Below, piece after piece: positions 3,182 to 61,752 of a stretch of 64,000 bases of DNA. The translations under genes and the position numbers were made by a program. Position 1 is the first letter of the stretch; each line of letters begins with the position of its first letter. The DNA is taken from NCBI GenBank assembly GCA_041389105.1, contig JAWKSO010000004.1:20652-84651 (forward strand). Direction: 5' to 3'. Source of the stretch: Minisyncoccota bacterium. GTDB lineage: Bacteria; Patescibacteriota; Minisyncoccia; Phycocordibacterales; CSBR16-119. A model generated the notes under the pieces. It saw only the letters and a program-made list of their open reading frames with translations. It ran no database searches and was not told the DNA's origin.

Positions 3182-3679
3182 CAACTTTCCGGAAGTGTAA
3201 TCTTCAGGAACACGAAGCGTTTTTTCGATAACTCAAAATTTTCAAAAACAAATTCAACTTCACCTTCTTTTTATCGGTAAATCGTTTATTGTCAGGATTA
3301 AATTGTGAGAAACAGGAGAATTATTTAGGGCTTTTATTCACCAGATAAGGTCGGCCAATGAGTTTCTTTTCATTGTCAAAATTTTTAAAACAGCAACATA
3401 ATTTAAATAAGGATCCCAACCGCAACCACTAACATATCCTGAAATATTTAATGGATAAGAAACCTCTGAACCGATAGCTGGACTCGTGACAGAAATACCA
3501 CAATAAAGTTCGTTTGTGTCGACGGAGACAACTGGCACAGAACTCTTTTCATCTATCTTTGAATTTGTAAAAATAAAAAGCAAAAATCCAAACAAAATAA
3601 CCACCAAAAGTGTAAGGAAAAGCTCGATGGTTATTAGTGTTTTTTTCACCCTTTTATTATACAACAAAATTCCCCACAA
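3181..3679 (-). pseudogene. membrane-anchored Gmad2 Ig-like domain protein, frameshifted
   Basis: TM anchor, then ISVTSPAIGSEVSYPLNISGYVSGCGW, typical of Gmad2 domains. The C-terminal part continues in other frames to the TGA at 3181. Confidence 0.45.
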
Positions 3680-13196: not shown

Positions 13197-14360
13197 ATGT
13201 CTAAAAATATAACAGTTGGAATAGACCTCGGTAGCCATCTTGTAAAAGTGATGGTTATTGAACATTTAAAAGAACGAGACAAAAAAACTTCTCGAATAAT
13301 CGGCACAGGAAAAGCCGAAGCCAGAGGGATTAAAAACGGATACATAAATGAACCAGAAGAAGTCATAAGAAGTATAGTGAAATCTGTCAGAGAAGCAGAG
13401 CATCGTTCTGGAATAAAAATCCGACAAGCCACACTTGCTGTCGGTGGTGTTAGTCTTGAATCCAAGCTAGCAAAAGGTACATCTATCATCTCTCGTGCAG
13501 ACAACGAAGTTTCATCTCTCGATGTCCAAAACGCTGTCAGAGAAAGTGAGCAAGGTTTAAAACTCCTAAACAGACACGTCATAGATTCTATTCCCTATGC
13601 ATACAAACTAGACGGAAAAGATTTATACGCAAGACCAGAAGGACTTCGCGGGGTAAAGCTCGAAGTCACAAGTCTTTTTGTAACTTGTATAAACCGGCAC
13701 CTCGAAGCTCTTGTTAACTCTGTAAACAACGCAGGAGTCGATGTCGTCGATGTTATCGCCGCACCGCTGGCTTCTAGTGTGGCCGTGCTTTCAAACCAAC
13801 AAAAAACAGCTGGATGTATTTTAGTAGATATCGGTGCAGAGACCATTTCTCTTTCTGTCTTCGAAGATGGAGATATAATTTCTATAAAAGTTTTACCTAT
13901 TGGAGGAATAGACATAACCCGAGATTTGGCTTTGGGACTTAAAATAACTTTAGACGAAGCCGAGAAAATTAAAAAAGGTGAAATAACTGGCAACTTCGAT
14001 CCAAAAGACGTAAGCGAAATAGTAGAAGCTCGTGTTACAGAATTTTTCGAAATAATCCAAAAGTTTCTAAAGAAAATAAACAAAGACGGAAGACTTGCTG
14101 GAGGAGCGATAATAGTCGGCGGTGCGACCAACAACGACACCACAGAAAGAATCGCTAAAAATATTTTAAACTTACCGATCACAATGTCTGGATCTCTTGG
14201 TTCTGGAGTTTTAAAAGATCCAGCTTGGTATGTGGTTTACGGACTTTGTATGTCTGGAAGATACAATCAAGGCCACAACAACTACTCAAACCCAGTCACA
14301 AAAGTTTTTAAATCACTGGGAGATTTTTTCAAAAATGTTGCGAAGCAACTAATGCCGTAA
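13197..14360 (+). CDS. ftsA: cell division protein FtsA
   Basis: Intact 387-aa actin-fold ORF (ITVGIDLGSHLVKVMV, ILVDIGAETISLSVF) directly upstream of ftsZ. Confidence 0.9.
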   Translation: MSKNITVGIDLGSHLVKVMVIEHLKERDKKTSRIIGTGKAEARGIKNGYINEPEEVIRSIVKSVREAEHRSGIKIRQATLAVGGVSLESKLAKGTSIISRADNEVSSLDVQNAVRESEQGLKLLNRHVIDSIPYAYKLDGKDLYARPEGLRGVKLEVTSLFVTCINRHLEALVNSVNNAGVDVVDVIAAPLASSVAVLSNQQKTAGCILVDIGAETISLSVFEDGDIISIKVLPIGGIDITRDLALGLKITLDEAEKIKKGEITGNFDPKDVSEIVEARVTEFFEIIQKFLKKINKDGRLAGGAIIVGGATNNDTTERIAKNILNLPITMSGSLGSGVLKDPAWYVVYGLCMSGRYNQGHNNYSNPVTKVFKSLGDFFKNVAKQLMP

Positions 14361-17077: not shown

Positions 17078-17301
17078 AATTTATTTTAAAGTTTAAATTA
17101 ACAAATAAGTGGAAAACTTAAGTCAATATTTTGCTATAATAATAATCGATTAACATGATCAAAAGAAAAATAAAATTCTGATTCTCTTAAGTATCGTGGC
17201 ATTATTTGCGACTGCCTTTTCAGGCTTTTTCTATTCTTCAAAAGTTGCGATTGGACCGAATGTGACTTTTTTCAATCGACAATACTTATAACAGCGTTGT
17301 T

Positions 17302-24906: not shown

Positions 24907-24982
24907 GCGCGGTTAGCTCAGTTGGTAGAGCGACTCATTGACGTTGAGTAGGCCAGGGGTTCGAATCCCTTATCGCGCACCA
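24907..24982 (+). tRNA. tRNA-Val (anticodon GAC), CCA encoded
   Basis: GCGCGGTTAGCTCAGTTGGTAGAGCGACTCATTGACGTTGAGTAGGCCAGGGGTTCGAATCCCTTATCGCGCACCA. Confidence 0.9.
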
Positions 24983-25549
24983 TGAAAAAGCAAATAATCA
25001 CCATAGCTGGAAAGCCAGGAAGCGGAAAAAGCACAACAGCTAAAAGACTCTCGGGTGAATTAAACTACGCTCATTTTTCTTCTGGAGATTTCTTCCGACA
25101 AGTCGGACTAGATAAGGGTCTGAACCTTATCAACCCTTTCGACTCTCGCAGAAAAAGATAAAAGTATAGACGAACTGACAGACCAAAAAGTTCGCGAGAT
25201 GGGAGAAAAAGAAAATATTATCGTCGAGTCGCGTTTGGCATTTCACTGGATACCAGATTCTTTTAAAGTTTATCTAGATTTAGACACAGACACTTGCGCA
25301 AAAAGAATGTTTGATGATTTAGAAAAAAACCCTTCAAGAAAAGCTAGCGAGGATTTTGACTCTGTCGAACAAATGAAAGAAGCTCTTTTGCAACGTTTCG
25401 AAAGTGAGAAAAAAAGATACATAGAAATGTATGACGTAAACCCTCAAGATTTATCTCAATATGATTTAGTTATAAACACGAGCGAAAATTCTGTGGAAAG
25501 TGTTTGTGAGAAAATAAAAGATTCTTATCTAGCTTGGCTTGGTTTATAA
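24982..25549 (+). pseudogene. P-loop nucleoside-monophosphate kinase (cytidylate kinase-like), frameshifted
   Basis: MKKQIITIAGKPGSGKSTTAKRLS. The rest is in ORF 25199..25549. The ATG shares its A with the last base of the tRNA-Val CCA. Confidence 0.6.
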
Positions 25550-25556
25550 TAAAATT

Positions 25557-26219
25557 ATGTCATCTTTGATTTTAAAAATTATAGCTGTCGTGACGATGGC
25601 GATAGACCATGTTGGATTTCTATTTTTTCCCGAAGAAGTAATTTTCAGAATAATCGGCAGAATCTCCTTCCCTCTTTTTGCATTTCTTATCGCCGAAGGA
25701 TTCCAAAAAACCAAAAACGTAAATGCATATCTAAAAAGACTTTCAATTTTCGCAGTGATTTCGCAAATTCCCTTTTTCTTTTTTGAAAAATCAGCGGGAA
25801 TAACAGATCTTAATTTAAATATTTTATTCACTTTGGCTTTGGGTGTGATAGCTTTAATGATCAGTGTGCGAATCAAAAACTGGCCGATAAAAATATTTAA
25901 CATAGCAATAATCTTGGCTGTCGCGTATTTGGGAAAATTCTCATACGGAATTTACGGAATACTTTCTATCATCGGAAGTTATATTTTCCTTCAAAACAAA
26001 AAAGCGGGACTTATAGGCCTTTCCATACTTCCCTTTTTAGAAAACGTCAGACTTTTTCTTTCTAATATTTTTTTCTTACAATTTTTCGCTATATTTAGCT
26101 TAGTTCCAATATATTTTTACAACGGAAAACAAGGTCCGAAAATATCTCGTTGGTGGTTTTATTGGTTTTATCCTGCTCATTTAGCTGTTTTGGTTTTGAT
26201 TTTTTTGATAATAAAATAA
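25557..26219 (+). CDS. TraX family membrane protein
   Basis: LKIIAVVTMAIDHVGFLFF..IGRISFPLFAFLIAEGFQKTKN..YLKRL: the TraX signature. Polytopic. Start taken at MSSLILK. Confidence 0.75.
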   Translation: MSSLILKIIAVVTMAIDHVGFLFFPEEVIFRIIGRISFPLFAFLIAEGFQKTKNVNAYLKRLSIFAVISQIPFFFFEKSAGITDLNLNILFTLALGVIALMISVRIKNWPIKIFNIAIILAVAYLGKFSYGIYGILSIIGSYIFLQNKKAGLIGLSILPFLENVRLFLSNIFFLQFFAIFSLVPIYFYNGKQGPKISRWWFYWFYPAHLAVLVLIFLIIK

Positions 26220-26254
26220 TTGCCCAAACCAGTCGAAACTGCTAATCTTCAAAT

Positions 26255-27377
26255 ATGAAAATACTATCTATCGAAACAAGCTGTGACGAAACAGCAATAT
26301 CTATTATCGAGGCTTCGGGTGAAATTTCGAAACCTTCTTTTCGTGTTTTAGCAAACAATCTAATCTCACAAATAAACATCCACCAAGAATTCGGCGGAGT
26401 TTACCCAAGCTTGGCAAAAAGAGAACATGCTAAAAACCTACCGATAGTCTTAGAGAAAACTCTAAAAGACGCGAACTTTTTTATAGAAGAAAAAAATACA
26501 ATAGATAAAGATAGGATAGAAAGTATCTTAGAGAGAGAAAAAGAAATGGCAGAAAATCTTTTCGACATTTTATCTAAAATTAAAAAACCTGAAATAGATT
26601 TTATCGCTGTGACCACAGGACCAGGACTCGAGCCGGCGCTTTGGGTCGGTATCACTTTTGCGAAAGCTTTAGCAAAAGCTTGGAACTTGCCTTTGGTTCC
26701 GGTAAACCACATGGAAGGCCACATACTTTCTGTGCTTTTAAAATCTAAAGAAAATGAAAGCATCGACACTTCTAAGATTAAATTCCCTCTTCTGTCACTT
26801 TTGATTTCCGGCGGACATACAGAAATTATTTTAGTTTCGAATTGGATGGAATATCAAAAGATAGGACAAACCGTGGACGATGCTGTAGGTGAAGCTTTCG
26901 ACAAAGTTGCGCGAATTCTCGGACTTCCATATCCTGGCGGACCAGAGATTTCACGTCTAGCAAAAGAAGGTAAGGAAAATAAAAAATAAAACTCCTCGCC
27001 CAAGCTCCGCACAGAAGATTATGATTTTTCTTTTTCTGGTCTGAAGACAGCTGTGCTTTATTTAGTGCGAGATATAGGAGAGCTTTCAGAACAAGACAAA
27101 AAAGACATTGCGAAAGAATTCCAAACAGCAGTCGGAGATGTTTTCGTACATAAAATAAAAAAGGCTATAGAGAAATACGGCGTATCACAAATAATAGTCG
27201 CGGGTGGTGTCGCAGCAAACGAATATCTTCGAGAAAGATTTAAAAATGAATTAAACATAGAAATATTTTTACCAGAAAAAAGATTTGTTCACAGACAACG
27301 CCATAATGATAGGTATGGCTGGATATTTCGGCGCTATTTCTGAAAAGAAACAAGCCCGGACGACAATGTCCGCCTGA
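26255..27377 (+). pseudogene. tsaD: tRNA N6-threonylcarbamoyl-adenosine transferase TsaD, frameshifted
   Basis: MKILSIETSCDETAISII, VNHMEGHILS, LLISGGHTEI, GLPYPGGPEI, then VAGGVAANEYLR and CTDNAIMIGMAGY in another frame. Confidence 0.85.
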
Positions 27378-45242: not shown

Positions 45243-47939
45243 TTAAGCCAACGTCTTTTTATTTTGAGTAACTTTTGGTTTTCTTGGTGCGCGAGATTTC
45301 TTCGCCACAACAACATCCAAATCTTCACCCTTCATATCCACCATAACTTTATCACCCGCCAAAAGAGATTCGCTGATTATTTTTCCTGCGACAGGATTTA
45401 GGATTTTAGTTTGATAAGTCTGTTTAGAGGTCGTGCGCCGTATTTTTGATCGTAACCTTCTTTTCCTAAATACGCCAAAGCCTTTGTCTGTGATATTTAG
45501 AAGAATTCCTTTTCGAGTAATCTTTCTCGAACTTTTTCCACTCGGATTTTTACAATTTCTGAAATAACTTCTGGAGAAAGCACGTCGAAAACAATAATCT
45601 CGTCGAGTCTGTTTAAAAATTCTGGTCGGAAGTGGTTTTTCAAAGCTTCCATAACTTTTTCTTTGTATTGTTGTATTCGTCTTTGTCAGAATTGTCAGAG
45701 AAAAACCAATTCGCTCCATTTTGTCGATGTATTGCGAACCGATATTTGAAGTCAAAATAATAACTGTGTTTTTGAAGTTTACAACGCGACCTTTTCCGTC
45801 TGTAAGTCGGCCTTCGTCTAGAACTTGAAGCAGTATATTGAAAACTTCTGGATGAGCTTTTTCTATCTCGTCGAAAAGTATCACAGAGTATGGTCGGTGT
45901 CGCACAGCTTCTGTAAGCTGTCCTGATTCGTCGTGACCGACGTATCCTGGTGGCGAACCGATAAGCTTAGACACGCTGTGTCGTTCCATGTATTCAGACA
46001 TATCAACTCTGATCAGCGCTTTATCGTCGTTGAACATAAATTCTGCCAAAGTTTTCGTAAGCTCTGTTTTACCAACTCCAGTCGGTCCAAGTAAAATAAA
46101 AGAACCTATTGGTTTGTTCGGGTCAGAAATACCGGCTCTGTTTCGGCGGATAGTGTCAGAGATTTTGATTATCGCTTCTTTTTGTCCGACGACTCTTTTC
46201 GCCAGCTCTTCTTCCATACGAGCTAGTTTTCTTCGCTCTTCTTCAAGCATTCTCGAAAGAGGGATTCCAGTCCATCGTGACACGACGTGTGCAATATCTT
46301 CTTCGTTAATCTCTTCACGAAGAACTCTTCGAGATTTTTGGAGTTTTTTGAGTTTTGCCATTTTTTTATCTAGCTCTTTTTGTATGAAAGGAATTTTTCC
46401 GTATCGGATTTCTGCTGCACGTCCGAGGTCTGCTTGTGTTTCAGCGCTCAGCCTCAAAACGCAAGGTTTCGAGTTTGGTTTTACATTCTTTTATTTCTCC
46501 GAGAGTTTCTTTTCGTTTTTCCACTTTAATTCTAGCTCTTTTGTTTTTTCTTTTAGTTCACCGATTTCTTTTGAGATTTCTTGCATTCTGTTTTTTGCGT
46601 TTTCAGAAGACGAAGTTTTGTTTTCCAAATCTTTTGACAATGCTTCTTTTTCAATCTCGAGTCGCATTATTTTTCTATGAGCGTCTTCTAAGACTTCTGG
46701 TTTGTTTTCGAGTTCCATTCGAAGAGCCGAAGAAGCTTCGTCTATTAAGTCCACCGCTTTGTCTGGTAGAAATCTACTAGTTAAATATCTTGTACTCAAA
46801 TCCACTGCCGTTAGGATGGCGTCGTCTGTGATTCGCACTCCGTGATACAGCTCGTACTTTTCTTTCAGTCCGCGAAGTATCGCCACCGTGTCTTCCTTAC
46901 TTGGCTCTTCAACATAAACAGGTTGGAAACGTCTTGCTAGCGCCGCATCTTTTTCGATATGTTTTTGATATTCTTTTATTGTTGTCGCACCAATAGCGCG
47001 AAGCTCTCCACGAGCAAGCGCTGGCTTTAAAAGTTGAGCCGCATCCAAAGATCCATCGGAACTCCCAGCTCCGACTATCATGTGGATTTCATCGATAAAG
47101 AGAATAAATTTTCCTTCTGACCTTTCTATTTCTTTCATTATCCCCTTTAGACGCTCTTCGAATTCTCCTCTGTATTTTGTCCCGGCGATAAGAGAACCGA
47201 TATCAAGAGACACGAGTTCTTTGTTTTTTAGAGAATCAGACACATCCCCCTTTGCTATTCTTTGCGCCAAACCTTCCACAGCGGCTGTCTTACCCACGCC
47301 CGGCTCACCGATAAGTATCGGATTGTTTTTGGTTCTTCGAGAAAGAATTTGCATGATTCGCATAATCTCAGAGTCGCGCCCGATTACAGGGTCCAACTTA
47401 TCTTCCTTTGCAAGTGAAGTTAGGTTTCTAGTGTATTTTGCTAAAAGTCTAAACTGAGATTTTACAGAAGAAACTTTTCCGTTTTCTTGGCGGAGTTCGT
47501 TTAGAGCTTTCATCACTTCTTTTTTCTCTATTTTAAATTGGTTTAAGATATCTTTCATTTCACCTTGAACATCGAGTATCGCGATGAAAAGATGTTCAGT
47601 AGAAACAAAATCGTCTTTTAAGATTTTTGCCACCTTACTTGCATTTTCTATCACACCAGCTAAGTCTGGAGTTAGGTAGAGTTGAAATGATGCAGAAACT
47701 GTGTTTGCAGATTCTGGTGGATCGATACTTTCGATTATGTGACTTGAAAGAAGTATTGTATCGACTTCAAGTTTTTCTAAAATAGACAAAACCATAGACT
47801 CATCTTGAAGTAAAAGTGCCGCAAAAAGGTGTGAAGAGTTTACGTGGTTTTGTCCGCGTTCAACAGCCAATTCGTGTGCTCGACGAATAGCTTCTTTGGC
47901 TTTTGTAGTGAAATTGTGAAATGGAGGTTGTTGTTGCAT
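45243..47939 (-). pseudogene. clpB: chaperone ClpB, C-terminal half frameshifted
   Basis: ORF 46491..47939: Clp-N, GEPGVGKTA, coiled-coil M-domain. ORF 45243..46457: [14 protein letters not shown], then the frame is lost in the last ~130 codons. Confidence 0.9.
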
Positions 47940-47960
47940 ATATTTTTTAATTACGAACGT

Positions 47961-47989
47961 ATAATAACACGGAAAATAGTTGCGGTCAA
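47961..47989 (-). promoter_or_regulatory. candidate clpB promoter
   Basis: Minus strand: TTGACC, 17 nt, TATTAT. Confidence 0.35.
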
Positions 47990-48107
47990 ATTAGTGGGTT
48001 TCAGGAGGTGTTTCTTTTATTTTAACATATAAATTATATCTTTTCTTTTCTTTTACTTTAAAATATTCTCTTACTTTTTTCATGATAAAAAAGTAACAAA
48101 AACTCTA

Positions 48108-50431: not shown

Positions 50432-50871
50432 ATGGAACAAAACCCATTGTTGGATTTTTCATCATCGTGGTCTTTGGACTTATGGCGATGATTTTTAAAC
50501 TGAACAAAAGGATAAATAAACTCCTTGAAGGAAAAGATGCAAAAAGCTTAGAAGATACTCTAGTTCATATTATAAACGAAATCGTCGAATGAACTCTGTT
50601 CAAGAAAATACAGAATTAATAATAAAAGATATAAACAAAAGATTGAAGACAAGTTTGACTGGTGTGGGTGTTGTGCGTTTCAACTTTTACAAACTCTGAG
50701 GAAAACTAAAGCTTGCCATCGCTCTACCAACGAACATGGCAACGGAGTTATCATCTCTACCTATACGGAAGAGAAAAGACAAGTATCTTCGCAAAACCAA
50801 TCTCAAAATTCAAATCTGAATTTGAATTAACAAAAGAAGAAGCGGAGGCTCTTAAAAAGTTAGTTAGATGA
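50432..50871 (+). pseudogene. DUF4446 family protein, frameshifted
   Basis: TM start, then across frames VGVVRFN(P)F..GG.QSFAIALL.EHGNGVIISTLY.RE..IFAKPI...[18 protein letters not shown]. Confidence 0.6.
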
Positions 50872-50873
50872 GG

Positions 50874-50909
50874 CCGCGTTTTCTTGGTTTTAAAACCAAG
50901 AAAACGCGG
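50874..50909. terminator. 36-nt perfect palindrome (bidirectional terminator)
   Basis: CCGCGTTTTCTTGGTTTT|AAAACCAAGAAAACGCGG. Confidence 0.6.
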
Positions 50910-50966
50910 GTACCTTTATGTTTAGTGGCTTTTTTCCACTTTTACTGTATAAAAGCAAAGGAAACT

Positions 50967-52489
50967 ATGTCAAAAGACTCTTCCCAAAACCTAATAGAAC
51001 GCCCACCAGTGGTGGCAGTTATGGGACACGTTGATCACGGAAAATCAACGCTTTTAGACTATATCAGAAAAACAAACGTCACAGCCGGTGAAGCTGCGGT
51101 ATAACCCAACACATATCTGCTTATGAAGTAACTCACAAAAATGCCGAAGGTGTGATGAAAAAATCACATTCTTAGACACGCCAGGTCACGCCGCTTTTTC
51201 AAACATGAGAGAGCGAGGTGCAAAAGCCGCCGACATCGCTATCCTTATCGTCGCAGCCGACGACGGAGTAAACAAACAAACTCTCGAAGCGTACGAAAGT
51301 ATAAAAGAATCTGACACACCTTTCCTTGTTGCAATAAACAAAATAGACAAAAACGGAGCAGATGTCCAAAAAACTAAAAACAGTTTAGTAGAAGCTGGAA
51401 TATACATCGAAGGTTACGGTGGAAATATTTCTTTCGTAGAAATCTCTGCTAAAAACGGCACAGGTATAGACGAGCTTTTAGAAACAATCCTTCTGACAGC
51501 CGAACTAGAAGATTTGAAAGGAGATTTAAACAAACCAGCAACGGGTCTTATTATTGAATCAGACATGGATGAAAAAAGAGGAATCTCTGCGTCTTTAATA
51601 ATCAAAGATGGTGTTCTAAAAAGAGGAATGTATGTTGTCGCAGAAGAATCAATAGCTGCGACAAGAATATTCGAAGATTCTTTAGGAAAAAGTATAAACG
51701 AAGCTCAGTTCTCTTCCCCGATAAGAATCACGGGGTTTTCATCTTCTTTAAAAATCTTAGGACTAACTAAAGTTCCAAGAATAGGAGAAACTTTTTATTC
51801 TTTCGAAACTAAAAAAGAAGCTGAAAATTTTATCGAAGAAACAAAAAACCTAAAAGATTCTGCGCCAGAAGATTTAAATCATGTTCGAGAAAACATGATT
51901 CCTTTAATCTTAAAAACAGACGTTGCTGGAACTGGTGAAGCGATAGAACAAGAATTACAAAAAATAGTTTGTGATGATACTTGTTTTAAAATAGTTAGAA
52001 AAGGTGTTGGAGATATTACAGAATCAGATTTAAACTTCGCCAACGCAGATAAGGGAGTTATTATTGTCGGTTTTAATGTAAAAGTAGAAAGAACAGCTCT
52101 CGATGCCAACGAACAAATCGGAGCAACTATTAAAACTTTCAACATAATATACGAGCTAACAGAATGGTTAAACAGAGAATTCGAAACAAGAAAACCTAAG
52201 AAAGATGTTTATGAAATAAAAGGAAAAGTAAAAGTTTTGAAGTTTTTCTCTAGAACCAAAAACACACAGCTTGTAGGTGGAAGGGTTTTAGAAGGATCGA
52301 TAAAAGTCGGAGACGCTGTGCGTGTTATTCGAAATGAAGAAGAATTACTACGTGGTAAAATAGAAGGTCTTCAACAAAACAGAAGTGAGGTAGAAGTGAA
52401 AGAAGGTTTGGGTTTGGTTGTGTGATCGATATAAAATAGATCTACAACCATCTGACATTATCGAATCTTTTGAAGTAACACTAAAATAA
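50967..52489 (+). pseudogene. infB: translation initiation factor IF-2 (short form), frameshifted
   Basis: [27 protein letters not shown], then DTPGHAAF (other frame), ORF 51205..52425 (NKIDK, domains II-IV). Ends ..DIIESFEVTLK* in another frame. Confidence 0.9.
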
Positions 52490-52861: not shown

Positions 52862-52932
52862 GGCTGGGTGGCGAAGTGGTAACGCTGCGGTCTGCAAAAC
52901 CGCCATGCACGGGTTCAATTCCGTCCCAGCCT
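52862..52932 (+). tRNA. tRNA-Cys (anticodon GCA)
   Basis: GGCTGGGTGGCGAAGTGGTAACGCTGCGGTCTGCAAAACCGCCATGCACGGGTTCAATTCCGTCCCAGCCT. Confidence 0.85.
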
Positions 52933-53071
52933 CAACGTTTGTGTTAAGGTGGAGTTAATGTTTTAAAAAATATTTAAATATGCTAGTATCTTTTTGTTTG
53001 AAGGATGTTTAGATATTTTAAATAAAAAAGGTTTATAAAAAATTTATAAACCTTTAAAAAATAAATATAAT

Positions 53072-53153
53072 GCCCGGATGGCGGAATTGGTATACGCGCA
53101 CGACTTAAAATCGTGTCTCGCAAGGGATGTGGGTTCGACCCCCACTCCGGGCA
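53072..53153 (+). tRNA. tRNA-Leu (anticodon TAA)
   Basis: GCCCGGATGGCGGAATTGGTATACGCGCACGACTTAAAATCGTGTCTCGCAAGGGATGTGGGTTCGACCCCCACTCCGGGCA. Confidence 0.85.
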
Positions 53154-53158
53154 CATTT

Positions 53159-53231
53159 TCTCTCGTAGCTCAGTTGGTAGAGCAGCTCCCTCTTAAGGAG
53201 ACGGTCGTAGGTTCGATCCCTACCGAAGGCA
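53159..53231 (+). tRNA. tRNA-Lys (anticodon CTT) with a poorly paired acceptor stem
   Basis: D, anticodon (CTCTTAA loop) and T arms are canonical. The 5' strand TCTCTCG against 3' CGAAGGC leaves positions 1 and 4 mismatched. Confidence 0.65.
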
Positions 53232-53297
53232 AATATTAAAAATGTGCTATGATAGCATTTGTTTTAATATTAAAGTTAAATTAAAAAAAGAAATCAT

Positions 53298-53377
53298 GCC
53301 CAGGTGGCGTAATTGGTAGCCGCGTTGGTCTTGGAACCAATGGAGCAATCCCGTGGGTTCGAGTCCTCTCCTGGGCA
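53298..53377 (+). tRNA. class II tRNA (Leu-like) with an anomalous anticodon loop
   Basis: GCCCAGGTGGCGTAATTGGTAGCCGCG TTGGT CTTGGA ACCAA TGGAGCAATCCCG TGGGTTCGAGTCCTCTCCTGGGCA. A perfect 5-bp anticodon stem leaves only a 6-nt loop. One extra A would give CTTAGGA, i.e. Leu-TAG. Confidence 0.6.
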
Positions 53378-53382
53378 CAAAG

Positions 53383-53479: not shown

Positions 53480-53552
53480 ATACCCGAAGACTAGAAGTAC
53501 TCGCGAAAGCGAAACATCTTCTGAACCTTGAAAACAAAAACCAGATAACTTA

Positions 53553-54671
53553 ATGAACAAAGCAGAAAGAATCCTGCTGAACCTCTTTTGGTTCTTAATA
53601 GTTGTGGTAATGATCATTGGATCATTCTACAATAATGTAGTGATGACGTTGACGTTTGTAGCTGCGGGCCTACTTGGTCTCTTCTATGGATTGTCATTCA
53701 CACCGTTTGGACCCTTTACTCAGATGGGTCCGGGAAGATACCTAGCTGTCAAACGCGGCCTTAACATCATAAAGTACTATCTCAACCAAGAGGGTTGGGG
53801 ATTAGCAAATGATGGAATGACATTTTTGCCTGATCCAAATGGATATTACCTGGAAAAACTCCGAAAGAATTTTCTTTTCCGGTATTTAGGTATGGTTTGG
53901 ACAGGATTTCCTGCCGGTGGGTGGAGTACAGGGAGTTCTTAAGGTGAAGAAAAAGTAAGGTTTAGCCAAAATGCAGATGGTACTCTTAAGTACTGGGTAG
54001 AAGACACTCCGGCAACCTACTATATCGCACCACCATTCATGAGGCACTTTGGCTTTGTTCTAGGTGCAATACCATCGAAAGGCAATAACACCTGGAATTT
54101 CGTAATACCTTCACGGATATTGGTGGTTAATCCAAAAGACTATGATCACCGCCTTGTCACCAACCCGGATAGTCCTATAAAAGGATCTTTTGAGTCGGCT
54201 CTTCGTCCACTCATAAAGAATCTGCAGACGCACGAGATCCTGAATCTCAAAGCAGAAGACAGGAGAGATCGAAACTCTATTGCAGCCAAGGCAAAAGAGA
54301 AGGCTAACCAGAACATGGTCTCAGAACTTTCCGGCGGATATGGATATGGGGTAATCCTCCATGACGTTGACTTCCAGGCTATAGAGCCAGCTGAGCACGA
54401 ATTTGCGAAAGCTATCCGAATGAAAGAGATAGCAGAGGAGGGTTGGAGAAGCAAGTCAGAGAAGCAGACTGGAAAGCTAAGAAAAAGCTACGAAAAAATG
54501 AAGCGGATGTTGAAATCATTCGCACCAAAGGCGAAGCTACAGCTAAAGCACAGGAGCTTTTCGTTAAAGCAACGGGAAACAATTCAGCTGTGGCTCGCCA
54601 AAGGCATACGGTGATGTGAAGGAACATGTGACACTGGTCATCGGAGACGGTGTCACAAAAAACATCCTCTA
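53553..54671 (+). pseudogene. SPFH/band-7 (prohibitin/flotillin-like) membrane protein with an in-frame TAA and C-terminal frameshifts
   Basis: ORFs 53553..53942 and 54039..54614 are in the same frame, separated only by the TAA at 53940. GVILHDVDFQAIEPAEHEFAKAIRMKEIAEE, then in another frame KNEADVEIIRTKGEATAKAQELF (Ala/Glu-rich SPFH tail). G+C-rich. Confidence 0.55.
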
Positions 54672-54715
54672 GGTGGACAAAAAGGTCACAAGGAAGAACC
54701 AAACACTGGTAAGGC

Positions 54716-55385
54716 ATGACTTGGATAACAGGAGTTCTAATCATGTTGGGGTTGTGGGCCTTAGGGTTTATTGCTGCGAGGATGAATACGTCACACAAAC
54801 CCCAGAATCTACACAGAAACCTACCGATTCAGACTCTGACGAGCATGATGAAAGTAGAGATGCGGAAGACGCCAAACCATCCTGGAGAACCAGGATGGCA
54901 GAGAGGTTTAAGCCGAAAAACAAAGTAAGGCTTGCCCTCTTTATAGGTGTTGCAATCTTCGTTGGCCAATGGGCATGGAAAGAGTTTGGAGACAAGCTCA
55001 CACATGCGAACGTTGGACCAGGAATGATGACTTACGACGGAAATCAAATCCTCGTAAAGAGACTCGCACCAGGAGAGGATGTGACGAAGCTACCACGCTT
55101 CGAAACTCCTGGCCAAGGAGAGCCCCTGTCATTTTCTTTCAATCCTCGCCGTGCAGATCTGTACGTCGTAGTGTTGGAGAAAAACGACCGCGGGGAGATA
55201 ATGCCGCGCTCGGACACCAACCCGTGCTGTACACTGGTCAGAAGTTGACCAGATGCGCAGCGATACAGATGTACGCCCTTTACCTCGGACCCAAGTCCAA
55301 GATAAAAGAGATGAATATAACCGCAGTCGTAGATACAGACTCGAAGAGATGTGATCCACTAAGCGGACTAGCAAAAAGACGTTGA
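54716..55385 (+). pseudogene. hypothetical two-TM protein downstream of the SPFH gene, frameshifted
   Basis: MTWITGVLIMLGLWALGFIAAR, an acidic linker, VRLALFIGVAIFVGQWAW, then a beta-rich region. Ends ..LSGLAKRR* in a third frame. Confidence 0.35.
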
Positions 55386-55448: not shown

Positions 55449-55499
55449 AAATGAGAAATAACAAAACCGCCTCACGGCGGTTTTGTTATTTTCTCATTT
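55449..55499. terminator. ~23-bp long hairpin (bidirectional terminator)
   Basis: AAATGAGAAATAACAAAACCGCC-TCAC-GGCGGTTTTGTTATTTTCTCATTT (one bulge). Confidence 0.65.
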
Positions 55500-55504
55500 A
55501 TTCC

Positions 55505-55814
55505 AAATCTGGTAAGTTCACCTCTATGTCTTGAACATTTATTTGTTGTTCTATCTAATGTGCCAAGTATGAGCTGCATTATGAAAAACACAGACGCCAT
55601 AATGGCCATACCTATAAGCCTACTGCCAATATGTTGTACCCTTTTCTCTTGCGTCTGGCTTGTCTGGTGCTGCCTGACTCAAAACCAAACCGTAAGCAAA
55701 GTAGATAGCGGCAATAGCAAACAAAAGTGCTATTAGAGGATTTAGTATTGCTTTGTTGATCTTTCTTATCGTCTCATCAGCAGAAACGTATGCGGTTAAA
55801 ACAAATGGCCACAT
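55505..55814 (-). pseudogene. TrbC/VirB2-like (T4SS_pilin-type) small membrane protein, paralogue 1, frameshifted
   Basis: ..FVLTAYVSADETIRKINKAILNPLIALLFAIAAIYFAYGLVL..DAREKG, then in another frame IGMAIMASVFFIMQLILGTL. The 3' end is approximate. Confidence 0.45.
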
Positions 55815-55816
55815 AA

Positions 55817-56239
55817 TTATTGACAGAATATTGGAGAACCAGAACCAGTATAACCAATAATCGTACCTTCCGCACAATCAGTAGACTGAATGTTTTGACC
55901 TCCTTGGTTGATACCAAATGTAGAGTTAAGAACAGCCACAAGACCCCAGATAGATACGATAACGAAAAGACCGATAATACCTGTGATAATAACAACACAA
56001 CCCTCTGCTTGATCTTCTGATTCTTTGGCTGTAGCGTATTTTATAACACCCCAGATAGTGTAAAGAACAGCAAGAGTGATCAATATAGGTATAACTACAT
56101 TTAATATGGCTGAGATAGTTCCCAACAAGTTAAAAACTGTTGGTCCGCCCACCGCCATTACCAGCAGGTGTTGTAGCGAACGCCATAAAAGGAACAGCGA
56201 AAAGACTCATAACACCAAACCTTTGATTAATTTACTCAT
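55817..56239 (-). pseudogene. TrbC/VirB2-like pilin paralogue 2, N-terminus frameshifted
   Basis: Signal-like MSKLIKGLVL..FAVPFMAFA in another frame. ORF 55817..56158 has ILITLAVLYTIWGVIKYATAKESEDQAEGCVVIITGIIGLFVIVSIWGLVAVL. Confidence 0.5.
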
Positions 56240-56368
56240 AGAATAAATATTTTAATAACTAATAATAATTTATACAAATTCCGAACCAAGGGGCGACTAT
56301 TTTTTCATACTCGCGCCATGAGTGCGGAATTTATACTCGTTTAAATTATAACACTAAGTAGAATAAAC

Positions 56369-56772
56369 CTACTCCTGCAACTGTGGAATAAAAGTACTGG
56401 CCTTATTACCAAATGTTCCTTGGATCACACCGACAAGCCCCCAGACAGATATCATTACAAAAAGTGCTATAAGTCCGTATATCATAAAGTTTCTTCCTTC
56501 TGTTCTTTTGGCTTCCTCATCTGCGCCAGCGATGTACTTAATAACTCCGATGATAAACACAATGACCGCAATCGAAATCAAAAGTGGCCAAAGAGAATAT
56601 TTTAAGATACACACAACCTTATCAAACAAAACAGAAATACATTATATCTCCTGAACAAGCGCTGTTGGAATTATTACTTGTGTTGCTTAAAGAAACATTT
56701 ATTCAGTTTGAGCAAAAGAAACTAGAGGTAAAACGATCATCGCTAAAGTAAAAGCTAACTAAATATTTTCAT
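56369..56772 (-). pseudogene. TrbC/VirB2-like pilin paralogue 3, N-terminus frameshifted
   Basis: MKIFS.LAFTLAMIVLPLVSFAQ signal in another frame. ORF 56369..56629 has LLISIAVIVFIIGVIKYIAGADEEAKRTEGRNFMIYGLIALFVMISVWGLVGVI. Confidence 0.5.
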
Positions 56773-56773
56773 A

Positions 56774-57577
56774 CTAAACTATAAAATTAATTAAATTATT
56801 AATAAAAACTAAATCTATTTCATCGAAAGTTCCTTTGAGAACTTTTACCAGCGTCCAAGCTCCAAATAAAATCACTCCTCCTATTATAACCCAGAGAAGA
56901 TTTTTCTTTGCATCCGTCAGGTCTTTTTCGTTACCTCGAGCCATAACCAAACGAAGACCAGAATACACAAGGAAGATTCCAAAATTGGGATTCCTATTTT
57001 TAGAAGAGCATTTAGAAGGCCGACGACAAAGCTGTTTAAATTTCACTTACTTGAAGAGGATTTTCTATAACTTCCTGTGTAGCCTGCATAACTTCCTGTT
57101 ATTACATCATTTTCAACAGCATCCTTCATGGCGGATCTAATGGCTGACTACCACTAAGAGTTACCATTGTTGGGAGTGTTTACAGGAACAACTTCAACAT
57201 CACCTGTGATATCACCACTTGGAACTATTTTAAAAACAAAATAATAAGGAGTATTTGGACTTAAGTTTGCAGAAGGATTAAAAGATGTTCCAGAAGCACT
57301 TGTAGATATAAAGTTCAAAAGATTCGGACTATCTATCTGTTGCTGAGTCGGTGGCGTAGAGCTCTGGAAAATTTTTACACCAAGGAAAAAGTCGTCTTGT
57401 GTTGCACCTTCTAGAGAGTTATAGAACCTTGAGCTGTAACTTGAATACTGTTTGTATTATTTTGAAAAGAAATAGAAGGAACGTTTATGTAAACATCGCA
57501 GAGCCAGCAGAAAAAGAACTTTTTGGTAACAAAACCAAGAACAAAATTACTAAAAATGTATTTCTCAAATATTTCAT
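56774..57577 (-). pseudogene. pilin-module protein, paralogue 4 (~265 aa), frameshifted
   Basis: MKYLRNTFLVILFLVLLPKS signal. The middle domain is broken. ORF 56774..57046 ends SGLRLVMARGNEKDLTDAKKNLLWVIIGGVILFGAWTLVKVL. Confidence 0.5.
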
Positions 57578-57578
57578 A

Positions 57579-58550
57579 CTAACCAAAATAACTACTAATC
57601 ATAACAATACTTTCTATGGTGTCTTGTATTAACTTCGCAAAGATCCATGACCCAAGAAGCACAGCGCCACCTATAATCGCATATGTGAAAGCATTTTTGG
57701 CTGTTTCGAGTTGTTTATCATTTCCTCTAGCTGTGACAAAAAGAAGTCCGGAATAAATAATAGCAATAGCAATAATAGGAATACCGATAGTTAGCGCGAA
57801 GTTTAAGACCTTCTGTATGAAGTCTATTAGAGTCATGTCGCTAGGACCTATTGGATTTTGGATGTTTATCTCGATATCTTCTCCGGCGATTCCAGTGGAA
57901 GTTCCTGTGGAGTTATTGTTAGAATTATTTTCATTTTGTAATTCAGTATCTCCGCTGTGTACATCACCGAAGGCTATTTCTACTACATAAGACCAATTTT
58001 TATTGTCGCAACCGTTGTTGCAGTTGTAGTTAATATTCGAGGTTAAAGAATAACTACTTACATTATTTAAAACATCGTCGTTTATTCTTATATAGTATCT
58101 ACAGTCTGGATCACCGGTGCTTTCACATTCGTCGTCTCCAGCTCTGAAAACGAGAGTAAAGTTTGGAACACTAGGATTTATTGTTCTATTATCAAAGCCC
58201 GTAATATCATCATCATCCGAAGAACCAGGTGCACCCAAACCTTCAAACATATTTGAACCACCATCGTCAGTTATATCTTCTCCAACATCATATTCTGTAA
58301 TACTCAGCTCAAAAGTGTCGTTTACTCCGGTACATCCTGTAGTCTGAAAATCAATATAAACATAAGGTGGATTTGTGTCGAAATACCAACCATCTGGTGG
58401 TATTGCTGTAGTGGCGCCTTGTGCGTTTACTGTTCGGAATTGAGCGCTATTTACCACACAAGCTGCCTCGGCGTTTTCTGTGTTTATTAAAAACAGCCCG
58501 CCTAAAACAAATGTGAAAGATAAAATAAATTTTAAGAATTTAATATTCAT
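57579..58550 (-). CDS. pilin-module protein, paralogue 5 (323 aa): signal, Cys/Asp/Asn-rich domain, C-terminal TrbC/VirB2-like module
   Basis: Intact. MNIKFLKFILSFTFVLGGLFL..AEA. C-terminus LIDFIQKVLNFALTIGIPIIAIAIIYSGLLFVTARGNDKQLETAKNAFTYAIIGGAVLLGSWIFAKLI. Confidence 0.6.
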   Translation of the reverse strand: MNIKFLKFILSFTFVLGGLFLINTENAEAACVVNSAQFRTVNAQGATTAIPPDGWYFDTNPPYVYIDFQTTGCTGVNDTFELSITEYDVGEDITDDGGSNMFEGLGAPGSSDDDDITGFDNRTINPSVPNFTLVFRAGDDECESTGDPDCRYYIRINDDVLNNVSSYSLTSNINYNCNNGCDNKNWSYVVEIAFGDVHSGDTELQNENNSNNNSTGTSTGIAGEDIEINIQNPIGPSDMTLIDFIQKVLNFALTIGIPIIAIAIIYSGLLFVTARGNDKQLETAKNAFTYAIIGGAVLLGSWIFAKLIQDTIESIVMISSYFG

Positions 58551-58551
58551 A

Positions 58552-59763
58552 TTATATACCTAGGATTCCTAATAATGGTCCAGTGTATCCAAAAACAATC
58601 AAGACTGTCCTGACGATAAGCCAAGCTGCGAGAAGTATGATAAGTCCGATTACAGCATTTCCGATTATTGTTTTGGCTTGATCTTTCTTGCTTGGATTTC
58701 CTCCGCTTGTTAAGAGTAAGAATCCAGCATAGATAAACATCATTGTAATAATAGGAATACCGATAATAAATATTAGAAATCTTATAACTCTATTTACCAA
58801 TAAGAGAAGTTTCTCAAAATTACATTCTGTTTGTATACCATCACAATTTATAAGTCCACCTTCAAAATCTTCGCCAGAAGTTAAAACGACTTGACCTGAA
58901 CCGCCACCAGATGAAGAATCTTCTGTGTCAGACAAAATGAAAGGTATATCTTCAAACACAAGCGAGAGCTCTCCTGCACCTGGTTGGTCGTTTATTAGTT
59001 TTACCCAATAGAATTGATCCAAGCTTAAGTTTGCGCCAGGTGGCACTGTAACACTAATAGAACCTACTGCGTTAAATACTGCACTTCCCGCCCAAACAAC
59101 CGAGTCTTCATTTCCATCAATCCCCTGCCCAGGACTATCTTCTGTTAAAATATAAAGAGCGACCGGCATACCTTGGATGGCCACGCCTCCAGAAGAGTTG
59201 TACATGTTTACGCTTGATGGCACATCTAGAGTAAGGATGACAGATCCATTTGATTGTTGGTCTACGTTTAAATTTAGATTTTGAAGTTTTTGAGTTTCTA
59301 CTATTACATAATCCCGAACTGGATTTGCATTTCCTTGAAGCTGATGCCATTCAACAATATCAAAATAGTATCTAGTCGCAGGCCAAAGAAGGTTTTGAAA
59401 ATTGTTTGGCATGTTGAAAGAAAATTGATTACTACTTATTGGAGTAAGATTTGGTGGGGTCGATGTAAAAAGATTTGAAGTATCAGCGGGAACATAACCA
59501 AAAACATCTCCAGAGACGTTTAAGCTTCCGTTTGGATTTGTTGTCACATCTCCAGCAAAACCAACCTCAACTTGCCATCTAAAAGATGGGTTTTGGACGT
59601 CTGTTGTCATCACGCCGTTTCCTGTCACAGAGAAGACACCGGGAGTGAGGTTCCATTGAACGTCTTGTATATGTTCACTAAAAGTCTGTGCAAAAGAAAA
59701 AACAGGGAAAAATAATCCGGCCAAAAGTATTGTTATTATTTTTTTGTTTAGGAATTTTTTCAT
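58552..59763 (-). CDS. pilin-module protein, paralogue 6 (403 aa): signal, beta-rich domain, SSGGGSG linker, C-terminal TrbC/VirB2-like module
   Basis: Intact. MKKFLNKKIITILLAGLFFPVFSFAQ. C-terminus LLLLVNRVIRFLIFIIGIPIITMMFIYAGFLLLTSGGNPSKKDQAKTIIGNAVIGLIILLAAWLIVRTV. Confidence 0.6.
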   Translation of the reverse strand: MKKFLNKKIITILLAGLFFPVFSFAQTFSEHIQDVQWNLTPGVFSVTGNGVMTTDVQNPSFRWQVEVGFAGDVTTNPNGSLNVSGDVFGYVPADTSNLFTSTPPNLTPISSNQFSFNMPNNFQNLLWPATRYYFDIVEWHQLQGNANPVRDYVIVETQKLQNLNLNVDQQSNGSVILTLDVPSSVNMYNSSGGVAIQGMPVALYILTEDSPGQGIDGNEDSVVWAGSAVFNAVGSISVTVPPGANLSLDQFYWVKLINDQPGAGELSLVFEDIPFILSDTEDSSSGGGSGQVVLTSGEDFEGGLINCDGIQTECNFEKLLLLVNRVIRFLIFIIGIPIITMMFIYAGFLLLTSGGNPSKKDQAKTIIGNAVIGLIILLAAWLIVRTVLIVFGYTGPLLGILGI

Positions 59764-61078
59764 TATCTAGAGAGTAAGTTTTTTAATTCTTTGTTTGTGT
59801 CGGCAACAGAAGATGAATAATCTTTCAAACCTGACAAAACATTTTCCACCATATCACTGAAAATCTTGTTTGTCTCAGAATAACTAGGATCAACCCAAGA
59901 ACGTGAAGCGATAGCTGATTTATAATAGACGTCTGTGAATTTTGTGAGTGAAGATGAAGGAGTAAGTAAATCTCTTCTGGCTGGAGTGAGTCCTGAGACA
60001 AAAGAAAATGGTGCTGCGAGCTGTCCGTTGGCTAATTGACCTGCGACATAAAAAGCACCTTGAGGATTTTTAGATGTTTTAGGAATCGCTAAAGCATGAA
60101 TATTGGAATATGTTAAGACGTTTTGAGAACCTTCGACTTGAGGAAGATTTGCGATGTCGAAGTTTAAGTTTGGATTGATTTTTTCTATCAAAGGTATTTC
60201 GCTAGCGAATCCAAAATATATAGAAAGGTCTCCTCCGACAAAAGCCGTGAGCGAATCTGGTCTTGATTTGTTCAAGAATAAACAGATTTTAGAGGATTGG
60301 AAAACTCAAGAAAGAATTTTAGAGTTTCTTCTGCAGGTTTTGCTGAAACTAAAGATTTCCCTGAAAAAACAGGAGTGTAAACAGATTTTGCGTAATCTCT
60401 CACGACCACGCTGTTGCCCAGCTGGATGTTCATCGCTAATATTATTTCTTTGAAGTTTTGAATATTTTTTGATTCTCCAAGAGCGACTCCGCTTCTACTT
60501 ATTTCTAGAGTTCGTTTTTCTCTGTGAGCTGTGGAACAAGAGTTGCAAAATCTTTCCAGTATTTTGGAGGGGCGACTATTCCTTTTGAATCGAAATGATC
60601 TTTGTTATAAAACATAATCAAAGGATCAGATAAAAAAGGATAACCAAGGATTCCGTTTTCTCTTTTGAAAACATCGGCGGCTTGAATATATGTATCGGCA
60701 AACATTCTCTGAGTAAAACCTTGATAAGGTATTTCAATAACTTTGTCTGCGTAAATGTTTATTAAGTCGTTAGAAAGGAAGAAAATATCTGGCGTACCAC
60801 CAAAAGCAAAAGAATCTAGAAGGTCTTTTCGTAAGTTAAGGATTTTTCTCGATATAGTTTAAGGTTAGCTGTCCTCCAGATTGATTATTAAAAAAGTCTA
60901 CCGTATCTCTTAGTTTACTTTTTGATACAGTTCCCCACATTGTAACCGTACCGACAGCTCCGCCGGTCGGACTATCGGATGCTTTAGTTGGAAGTTTTAT
61001 CGCTCCAGAAAAAAATGCTGCGGCAAGAGCACCAAATATACCGAAAATAACTAGTAGTACTATTTGAAAAGTTTTCAT
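59763..61078 (-). pseudogene. ABC transporter extracellular solute-binding protein (family 1-like), frameshifted
   Basis: Signal/TM MKTFQIVLLVIFGIFGALAAAFF (60836..61078). ILGYPFLSDPLIMFYNKDHFDSKGI..PPKYWKDF (60505..60705). C-terminal ORF 59763..60275. Confidence 0.65.
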
Positions 61079-61128: not shown

Positions 61129-61665
61129 TTACGCCTTTTTGAAAATAATGCCGTAGTGATGGTTTCCGACCGGCACGCTTTCCTCGAAAACAAAACCTAT
61201 TTTCTCAAACATGTTTTTGGAAGTTTCTTCGTCTACAATATTTTCTGGTTGAGGACCGATTCCTCCGAAAGACTCTGACCAATCCACAAGAAGAACTTTT
61301 CCACCCGATTTCAAAACCCGAAAACATTCTTTAACTAAGGACTCTTTATGCTGGACTTGGAAAAGTATGTTGGAAGCTATCAAATAATCTAAAGATGAGT
61401 CGCGAAGTTTAGAACCACCTTCTTTTTCTAAATCACCCCAGACAGTCTCGATGTTTTTAATGCTTTTTTGAGTTACGTCTTTTTGAATTTTCATCAAAAG
61501 GCTTTTTTGAATATCCACAGCGTAAACCTTACCCGAATCACCGACTAAATCTGAAAGTGGAAAAATATAGTGACCAGAACCTGACCCAAAATCAGCTACA
61601 ACAGAACCTTCTCTAACTTTTAAATGCTTGATATTTTTTTCTGGATTTGAGAAATTTAAAATCAT
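61129..61665 (-). CDS. class I SAM-dependent methyltransferase
   Basis: VVADFGSGSGHYIFPLS..KVYAVDIQ (motif I / post-I). Intact 178 aa. Confidence 0.75.
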   Translation of the reverse strand: MILNFSNPEKNIKHLKVREGSVVADFGSGSGHYIFPLSDLVGDSGKVYAVDIQKSLLMKIQKDVTQKSIKNIETVWGDLEKEGGSKLRDSSLDYLIASNILFQVQHKESLVKECFRVLKSGGKVLLVDWSESFGGIGPQPENIVDEETSKNMFEKIGFVFEESVPVGNHHYGIIFKKA

Positions 61666-61721: not shown

Positions 61722-61752
61722 CAAAAAACACCGGGTTTTTCCGGTGGTTTTT
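61722..61752 (-). terminator. intrinsic terminator after gyrA
   Basis: Minus strand: CACCGG-AAAAAC-CCGGTG followed by TTTTTTG. Confidence 0.6.

Follow-up and report, generated by a model that had tools for sequence, protein, structure and literature searches.

A conserved Patescibacteria operon joins a solute-binding protein gene to six VirB2-like pilin genes, three of them with predicted adhesin-like domains

Introduction

Tandem arrays of small pilin-like genes have been described repeatedly in Patescibacteria. In 2018, Saccharibacteria were reported to have arrays encoding 4–6 small VirB2-related proteins with signal peptides (McLean et al., 10.1101/258137), and a pilin series inside a type IV secretion system (T4SS) cluster was found to be essential in Southlakia (Wang et al. 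2023, PMC10633639), where the pilins are given as six VirB2-like proteins (PMC12857230). In 2025, 441 arrays of 2–11 pilin genes were catalogued (Quinonero-Coronel et al., PMC12102498). According to the same study, virB4 of Paceibacteria usually lies near dnaA and dnaN, and pilin genes are found near virB4 in 1135 of the 1948 assemblies having both, with about 40% unlinked (PMC12102498). The T4SS and pilin series are essential for epibiotic growth of the one genetically tractable Patescibacterium, and their role has been called completely unknown (PMC11665869, PMC10633639). Here, we analyzed a 64-kb stretch of a Minisyncoccota bacterium genome (GCA_041389105.1, contig JAWKSO010000004.1), referred to as the window, which carries six minus-strand pilin-like genes in tandem at 55505–59763. 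The genes are named F, E, D, C, B, and A in the order of transcription.

The locus falls within the published definition of an array, that is, 2–11 pilin genes of low identity on a Patescibacteria chromosome, in tandem or with one non-pilin gene between them (PMC12102498). It resembles the VirB2-like arrays of Patescibacteria in its divergent PF18895/TrbC-like genes with signal peptides (published identity about 25%) and in its separation from virB4, which is frequent among those arrays, and it shares the count of six with Southlakia. The core finding is already known from the 2018, 2023, and 2025 reports. Consequently, a first-pass annotation of this DNA was mistaken in regarding the array as unexplained, because such arrays, many of them unlinked to virB4, had been published (PMC12102498; PMC10633639; 10.1101/258137). 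Unlike the published arrays of small proteins, the present one has three members with predicted beta-sandwich N-terminal domains of 170–280 aa that are exchanged as cassettes; it is always preceded by the gene of an extracellular solute-binding protein (SBP), and its context is the housekeeping series gyrA...infB rather than a T4SS cluster. Four points therefore appear to be new within the searched literature: the adhesin-like fusions, the cassette replacement between strains, the SBP partner with its housekeeping context, and the order of the pilin classes. The link to an SBP gene was absent from the literature within the reach of that search.

Results and Discussion

Six tandem genes share a VirB2-like pilin module

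All six consecutive minus-strand genes placed here by the first-pass annotation were found, and the C-terminal module that it proposed as common to them, of a TrbC/VirB2-like T4SS_pilin family, was confirmed by several independent comparisons. Five of the six products passed the Pfam gathering cut-off of PF18895 (T4SS_pilin, 26.6 bits; scores in Table 1). Gene A alone stayed below it as a weaker homologue, and its orthologues likewise gave weak PF18895 matches. In addition, the NCBIfam model NF045849 ("pilin-like conjugal transfer protein") gave sub-threshold matches for all six classes including A (E 1e-6 to 4e-3). When the module of D was compared with 72,556 plasmids by tblastn, the best match showed 41% identity over 70 aa (E 6e-5) and was located on Macrococcus pJEK46-1; the matching proteins, from Macrococcus, Virgibacillus, and Enterococcus plasmids, are annotated as "TrbC/VirB2 family protein". 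The Macrococcus gene sits in a pLS20-like conjugation cluster beside a VirD4-like gene and a pLS20_p028 (VirB6-like) gene. Furthermore, hhalign aligned a six-class profile built from 24 sequences with the Macrococcus protein over 68 columns at 95.8% probability (E 8e-9). Taken together, the plasmid matches, their conjugation-cluster context, the profile alignment, and the NF045849 matches identify the module, at the level of sequence, as a true relative of the T4SS-associated VirB2-like proteins of monoderm conjugation systems.

The six modules are only 15–30% identical to one another. Each consists of two strongly hydrophobic helices joined by a loop of 13–17 residues with 2–5 Lys/Arg, as judged from hydropathy, and helical hairpins were also present in the AlphaFold2 models of F and E. 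Signal peptides were judged by eye, without a predictor. Those of F to B are ordinary and end in AxA- or AQ-type motifs, and A has only a 10-residue hydrophobic stub, so that the signal-peptide-like start assigned to every gene by the first-pass annotation is canonical in five of the six. Cysteines are even in number and confined to the predicted outer segments: F and C each have two ahead of helix 1, the E domain has six to eight, and B has two behind helix 2. Because these Cys pairs flank the hairpin on both sides, both of its termini are predicted to lie outside the cell, as in VirB2. The signal peptide (a stub in A), the two-helix hairpin, and the short basic loop are all shared with the TrbC/VirB2 conjugative pilins (PF04956). 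These pilins differ from the present proteins in having VirB3, VirB4, and VirB6 genes adjacent and in size, since the mature proteins here reach 380 aa versus about 70.

The module was also found in repeated form. Among the 56,395 library clusters matching it, single polypeptides with 2–17 tandem pilin modules were present (P0077–P0222), for example P0078 (552 aa), P0087 (1775 aa), and P0102 (231 aa). In P0078, six complete hairpin modules follow the signal peptide without any stop between them, and several of the best matches have exactly six modules. These single-chain fusions suggest that the modules may act as a stoichiometric unit.

On the Gram-positive side, "TrbC/VirB2 family" proteins of 76 aa are encoded in pLS20-like conjugation clusters, as on the Macrococcus armenti plasmid pJEK46-1 (L018, record positions 13348–13578) and on Enterococcus faecium plasmids; their identity to the module of Patescibacteria reaches 41%. 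VirB2 homologues have been stated to be absent from MPF-FATA systems (PMC12102498). The Gram-positive proteins may bear on where the Patescibacteria pilins originated.

The array belongs to a conserved operon with ancient, ordered pilin classes

The pilin genes and the SBP gene upstream of them, whose coupling the first-pass annotation had missed, form a unit bounded by two terminators (Table 1). Genes within the unit are spaced by 0–2 nt or overlap, except for two gaps, one of 50 nt between the methyltransferase and SBP genes and one of about 129 nt between C and B. The methyltransferase gene is the first after the upstream terminator and adjoins the SBP gene in most related loci; it may belong to the unit. 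An extended −10-like motif (TGTTATAAT) in the C–B gap is weak evidence, from the motif itself, for a possible internal promoter. A local hidden Markov model (HMM) search of the six-frame translation found no further pilin module in the 64 kb beyond the six genes. The locus is thus a conserved chromosomal operon of a Paceibacteria-type Patescibacterium, comprising possibly the methyltransferase gene, the SBP gene, and six pilin genes between two flanking terminators.

Full-length homologues of F (about 22) and E (47) all come from Patescibacteria metagenomes or metagenome-assembled genomes. Nine independent genomes all have six genes in an unchanged order; from F to A, the products measure about 385–413, 313–337, 268–290, 136–141, 140–147, and 106–110 aa. 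The context is equally constant: gyrA, the methyltransferase, the SBP, the six pilins, a convergent transmembrane (TM) protein and Band_7 protein, and, farther along, rbfA and infB. The same surroundings, with five or six small pilins, recur in more distant lineages. Reciprocal best hits pair F with position 1 of those arrays (a C-x(5-6)-C-F motif is common to both), E and D with position 2, C and B with the middle members, and A with the last small member. Because the arrays of distant lineages show this positional orthology, sequence comparison indicates that there are at least four paralogue classes and that they are ancient and ordered.

An SBP gene precedes the array and no secretion machinery adjoins it

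With the exception of L056, each of the 36 loci whose upstream DNA was long enough has a homologue of SBP_bac_1 directly 5' of the first pilin gene. The distance from the SBP end to the pilin start ranges from −14 to +110 nt, with an overlap in most loci, and the arrangement holds at 35% SBP identity. This constant coupling would link the array to uptake.

The first-pass annotation had reported no VirB4, VirB6, VirD4, or relaxase gene in the window and no adjacent machinery, and both statements were upheld. A Pfam scan of stop-to-stop segments of at least 55 aa, a greedy cover of 88% of the window, detected no VirB4, VirB6, VirD4, PrgI, or relaxase; FtsZ, TrxB, ValRS, LepA, RelA, ParB, ClpB, GyrA, and most of IF-2, which the scan left out, were recognised by eye. 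Moreover, tblastn with VirB4, PrgI, and the TrsD-like protein of L056 and with VirD4 and the VirB6-like protein of Macrococcus gave no match in the 64 kb or in some 50 related loci. VirB3, VirB4, and VirB6 were found beside the pilins neither in the 64 kb nor within 10 kb in at least nine orthologous and about 30 more distant loci.

The locus without a preceding SBP gene, L056, comes from another Patescibacteria lineage. Its array encodes proteins of 465, 111, 132, and 102 aa and lies 5–9 kb upstream of PrgI, a TrsD-like gene, and VirB4 (L056 7555–19132). The 465-aa pilin heads this four-pilin array and has a 370-aa N-terminal region, which shows that large N-terminal extensions on T4SS_pilin proteins are not unique to the clade of the window.

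Three members carry predicted adhesin-like outer domains

According to the first-pass annotation, unrelated and progressively larger surface domains were fused to the module throughout the array. The absence of kinship was confirmed for F, E, and D, between which the best BLASTP match had E 0.05; the rise in size is also seen in them. These three genes alone have real N-terminal domains; C, B, and A have only about 10–40 extra residues, and the graded family is better described as at least four ancient, ordered classes, three members of which carry domains.

The two intact large paralogues, F and E, were modelled alone with AlphaFold2. For F (24 sequences), the mean predicted local distance difference test score (pLDDT) was 76 and reached about 90 in the N-terminal part (residues ~30–280), which forms two tandem beta-sandwiches; a disordered linker rich in G/S connects this part to a long helical hairpin. 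A Foldseek search with F gave hundreds of tandem FN3/Ig-like matches, including Ihog FN3 (E 3e-7), neogenin FN5-6, cytokine receptors, and Vibrio RbmA. The model of E (48 sequences, pLDDT 80) contains a single beta-sandwich, about 170 residues long, in which six Cys are invariant. This domain had no significant fold match in Foldseek searches of PDB and viral structures, the best being the Wzt carbohydrate-binding domain (E 8e-3), and no Pfam or NCBIfam family was assigned to the N-terminal domains. The models of F and E, together with the predicted topology, support the view that the large N-terminal regions are extracytoplasmic, adhesin-like beta-sandwich domains, in agreement with the surface location first proposed for them. 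Each of the large domains in F, E, and D is a lineage-specific insertion located after the signal peptide and ahead of the hairpin.

Comparison across related genomes, which had been proposed as a check for turnover of copy number and N-terminal domains, revealed turnover of the domains only; the copy number in the near clade is fixed at six. Loci L002 and L009 have a DNA identity of about 90%, which drops to 31–38% exactly over the N-terminal domain of D. At the protein level, their D hairpins are 98% and their D N-terminal domains 28% identical, and F and E are 91–97% identical. Similarly, L007 and L008 share about 93% DNA identity and 43–55% over the N-terminal domain of E. The D domains fall into at least two barely related types, the distribution of which conflicts with the strain phylogeny; the hairpins track that phylogeny, unlike the D and E domains. 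This pattern carries the signature expected of recombinational replacement of exposed, selected domains and would fit a role in host or ligand recognition. Adhesin-like domains evolving by cassette exchange are what would be expected for host recognition.

Table 1. Genes and boundaries of the operon, in the order of transcription, in window coordinates
Feature	Position	Strand	Size and state	Family evidence	Layout and remarks
Bidirectional terminator-like hairpin	61729..61746	.			Between the gyrA end and the methyltransferase gene; upstream boundary of the unit
S-adenosylmethionine (SAM)-dependent methyltransferase	61129..61665	-	178 aa, intact	Pfam Methyltransf_31/11/25, Ubie_methyltran	
Membrane-anchored extracellular SBP	59763..61078	-	439 aa in relatives; frameshift-split here	SBP_bac_1	Stop overlaps the start of F
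Pilin gene F	58552..59763	-	403 aa, intact	PF18895 41.8 bits; 22 full-length orthologues	Signal peptide, two tandem FN3/Ig-like beta-sandwiches (~30–280), disordered G/S-rich linker, C-x6-C loop, two-helix pilin hairpin, conserved FGYxGPLLGILG tail
Pilin gene E	57579..58550	-	323 aa, intact	PF18895 31.8 bits; TrbC 18.1 bits; 47 homologues	Signal peptide, one ~170-aa beta-sandwich with six invariant Cys, linker, pilin hairpin
Pilin gene D	56774..57577	-	~267 aa (268–290 aa in relatives); at least 4 frameshifts	PF18895 45.8 bits; TrbC 27.4 bits	Signal peptide, hypervariable beta-rich N-terminal domain (type T1), pilin hairpin
Pilin gene C	56369..56772	-	~134 aa (136–141 aa in relatives); 3 frameshifts in the first 60 codons	PF18895 34.4 bits	Signal peptide, short Cys-pair segment, pilin hairpin
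C–B gap	56240..56368	-	129 nt (84–129 nt in relatives)		Extended −10-like TGTTATAAT at 56353-56345
Pilin gene B	55817..56239	-	~140 aa (140–147 aa in relatives); two compensating frameshifts in the signal peptide	PF18895 31.9 bits	Hairpin plus C-terminal tail with conserved Cys pair
Pilin gene A	55505..55814	-	~102 aa (106–110 aa in relatives); one frameshift between the helices	PF18895 13.5 bits; NF045849 E 1e-6 for orthologue	Most divergent member; 10-residue hydrophobic N-stub, amphipathic helix, hairpin
Strong bidirectional terminator	55455..55492	.	16–17 bp stem plus T-run		Immediately follows A; downstream boundary of the unit

A proposed heteromeric surface structure and the alternatives to it

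With moderate confidence, we propose that the six proteins are non-redundant VirB2/TrbC-family subunits assembled by a distal monoderm-type T4SS into a heteromeric surface structure that displays exchangeable domains. The proteins would be exported or inserted through Sec, and their hairpins would form a membrane pool. A monoderm-type T4SS (VirB4, PrgI/VirB3, VirB6) encoded elsewhere in the genome would then assemble a pilus or a short stub, of which the small members A–C would build the body, with F, E, and D displaying exchangeable binding domains. The displayed domains would attach the cell to a host or ligand, and the co-transcribed SBP would belong to the same functional unit. This reading is supported by the identity and topology of the module, the domain models, the conserved order, the cassette exchange, the operon layout, the wide occurrence of VirB2-like arrays in Patescibacteria, and the T4SS-linked array of L056 with its 465-aa pilin. 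Ancient, ordered classes are as expected for a heteromeric structure, and the locus suggests how ultra-small Patescibacteria epibionts might hold on to their hosts.

In type IV pili and type II secretion systems, some minor or tip pilins are known to bear large domains, such as the PilY1-associated minor pilins, GspK, TcpB, and CofB. By analogy, the present proteins may resemble them in that a small polymerising module is fused to a large outer domain in a fibre made mainly of small subunits; however, the fold and machinery are unrelated and there is no class III signal peptide. In the N-terminal sequences, which were read by eye with no formal motif search, there was no G/FTLIE or G/(F,M)xxxE type IV pilin motif. 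Moreover, unlike type IV pilus pilins, with their single N-terminal helix, the products have type I-like leaders and two C-terminal helices.

Several points weigh against a T4SS-assembled surface structure. None of the six products reached the PF04956 (TrbC) cut-off of 27.9 bits: D came just short of it at 27.4 bits (E 3.9e-6), E followed at 18.1 bits, and the others gave nothing. The module profile retrieved no solved conjugative pilin from PDB, only spurious TM hairpins (GPCRs and designed proteins). VirB4, VirB6, and PrgI were not found for this genome in the window ± 10 kb. We know of no T4SS pilus with 20–30 kDa domains on its pilins. Finally, a filament explains the constant SBP partner and the single chains with 2–17 fused modules no better than a membrane complex does.

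Such a complex is the main competitor, and we consider it possible though rather unlikely. The six hairpins would form a fixed hetero-oligomer in the cytoplasmic membrane, independent of any T4SS, as an uptake or receptor complex with the SBP; the domains of F, E, and D would be its outer face, and "pilin" would be only a family name. This would account for an SBP gene that overlaps or abuts pilin 1 so constantly, for member classes and an order fixed across lineages, and for the absence of T4SS genes within 10 kb in the SBP-linked loci. The fusions, several with six modules as in P0078, also suggest a stoichiometric assembly, and the module has no sequence match to solved pilins. However, the module is homologous to TrbC/VirB2-family proteins inside conjugation clusters, similar arrays lie in or near a T4SS cluster in other Patescibacteria (L056; PMC10633639), and the SBP gene lacks an accompanying gene for an ABC permease or ATPase.

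More speculatively, the SBP and the six subunits could constitute an undescribed organelle of very small Paceibacteria that tethers the host and captures host nutrients. Such an organelle would take the form of a heteromeric fibre or pore of the VirB2 type, encoded away from the T4SS ATPase machinery or even functioning without it, with fused beta-sandwich domains, swapped by recombination, as its receptor-binding outer face. We regard this proposal as doubtful.

Tandem VirB2 genes also occur in Bartonella Trw and in Anaplasma, where, as may be the case here, multiplicity is linked to host interaction, and that analogy has been put forward for the Patescibacteria arrays (PMC12102498). On this basis, the six genes might be alternative major pilins from recent tandem duplication, used one or a few at a time as an antigenic- or host-range-variation repertoire. 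The tandem layout, the low identity between members (15–30%), and the N-terminal cassettes that differ between strains are in keeping with such a repertoire. Nevertheless, we find it very improbable. The Bartonella and Anaplasma arrays are recent duplicates with copy-number variation beside a T4SS, whereas the classes here are ancient and fixed. The near clade shows no copy-number change, with the same six genes in order and size; in distant lineages the five or six members follow the same order of classes, so the paralogues are ancient; and the variation sits in the N-terminal domains of orthologues, not in the presence of paralogues. The conserved class order argues for specialised subunits, not antigenic variants.

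Interrupted reading frames reflect assembly errors

In translation table 11, only F and E are uninterrupted, and D, C, B, and A each contain one to four frameshifts or in-frame stops. The same kind of break occurs in the genes of MreB, TsaD, Cmk, ClpB, IF-2, the Band_7 protein, and the SBP in the window; among the housekeeping genes, mreB (7947–8755), cmk (24952–25546), tsaD (26246–27340), clpB (45246–47990), and infB (50868–52422) are split, and gyrA is likewise shattered in the sister assembly. Between the window and the NCBI record of the same organism (GCA_041389125.1, JAWKSN010000001.1) there are 9 differences in a compared 6.4 kb, mostly homopolymer-length indels, some of them inside the SBP gene. 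The shifts checked by hand proved to be 1-nt errors in the length of short runs of T or G. In addition, all six pilin genes are intact in at least nine related genomes, several of them from short-read assemblies. Because housekeeping genes are broken in the same way, the two records differ, the breaks fall at homopolymers, and the orthologues are intact, we attribute the breaks to consensus errors. The reading that the array is decaying, with four of six genes left as true pseudogenes of a lost conjugation system, could draw on the frameshifts and stops in four genes and on the absence of machinery nearby, yet it is rejected as extremely improbable because essential infB, mreB, tsaD, and clpB (and gyrA in the sister assembly) show the same kind of break, two versions of the genome differ by homopolymer indels, and the six genes are conserved and intact in the other genomes.

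An alternative genetic code was also considered as the cause of the broken open reading frames (ORFs) and was ruled out, since the breaks are frame changes and not only TGA stops. ORF-level reading of the window requires frameshift-tolerant methods. The circularity of the 381-kb NCBI record, at first inferred because the window overran its end, was withdrawn, as the window belongs to a second assembly of the organism; the D fragment of the window lies on a 107,049-bp contig of that assembly. Five tRNA genes (Cys, Leu, Lys, and others) are clustered at 52862–53378 (+). ARAGORN reported the last of them (53298–53378) as "tRNA-???" with a two-base anticodon, and its Rfam score was just 37.5 bits; it is probably another indel error.

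Neighbouring genes and other features of the window

Two genes convergent to the array, which encode a Band_7/SPFH protein and a TM protein of 191–228 aa, occupy 53532–55245 (+) in the window, 14489–16128 in L002, and 14435–16191 in L007. They keep their position across lineages, and the DNA there is 30–50% identical between strains that are otherwise about 90% identical. In the window, this segment has 45% GC versus about 37% elsewhere.

A conserved membrane protein of about 423 aa without a Pfam match is encoded at ~1938–3232 (−), where its gene is broken; it is intact in L015 (1439–2710) and L016 (16507–17793). The gene is flanked by a HARE-HTH/sigma70-r4 gene and a YceG-like gene, and the 381-kb NCBI record stops within it, at about window position 2389. 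For both this protein and the TM neighbour of the array (205 aa), no Pfam or NCBIfam family was found. The largest contigs in independent assemblies of the clade measure 380,284, 381,443, 390,783, and 402,937 bp, which hints that genomes of the clade are very small (~0.4 Mb) and possibly closed.

Two further genes of the window may be relevant to surface structures. An intact TraX-family gene, overlooked in the first-pass annotation, lies at 25539–26216 (+), about 30 kb from the array, and matches PF05857 at 144 bits, with sub-threshold matches to TrbP and the F-type TraX pilin acetylase; the family is broad, and its product might modify pilin N-termini. The gene at 17266–19731 (+) encodes an 822-aa predicted surface protein with beta-propeller (YNCE/PQQ-like) repeats, an SWM repeat, and a divergent InlB B-repeat domain, which makes it another candidate adhesin.

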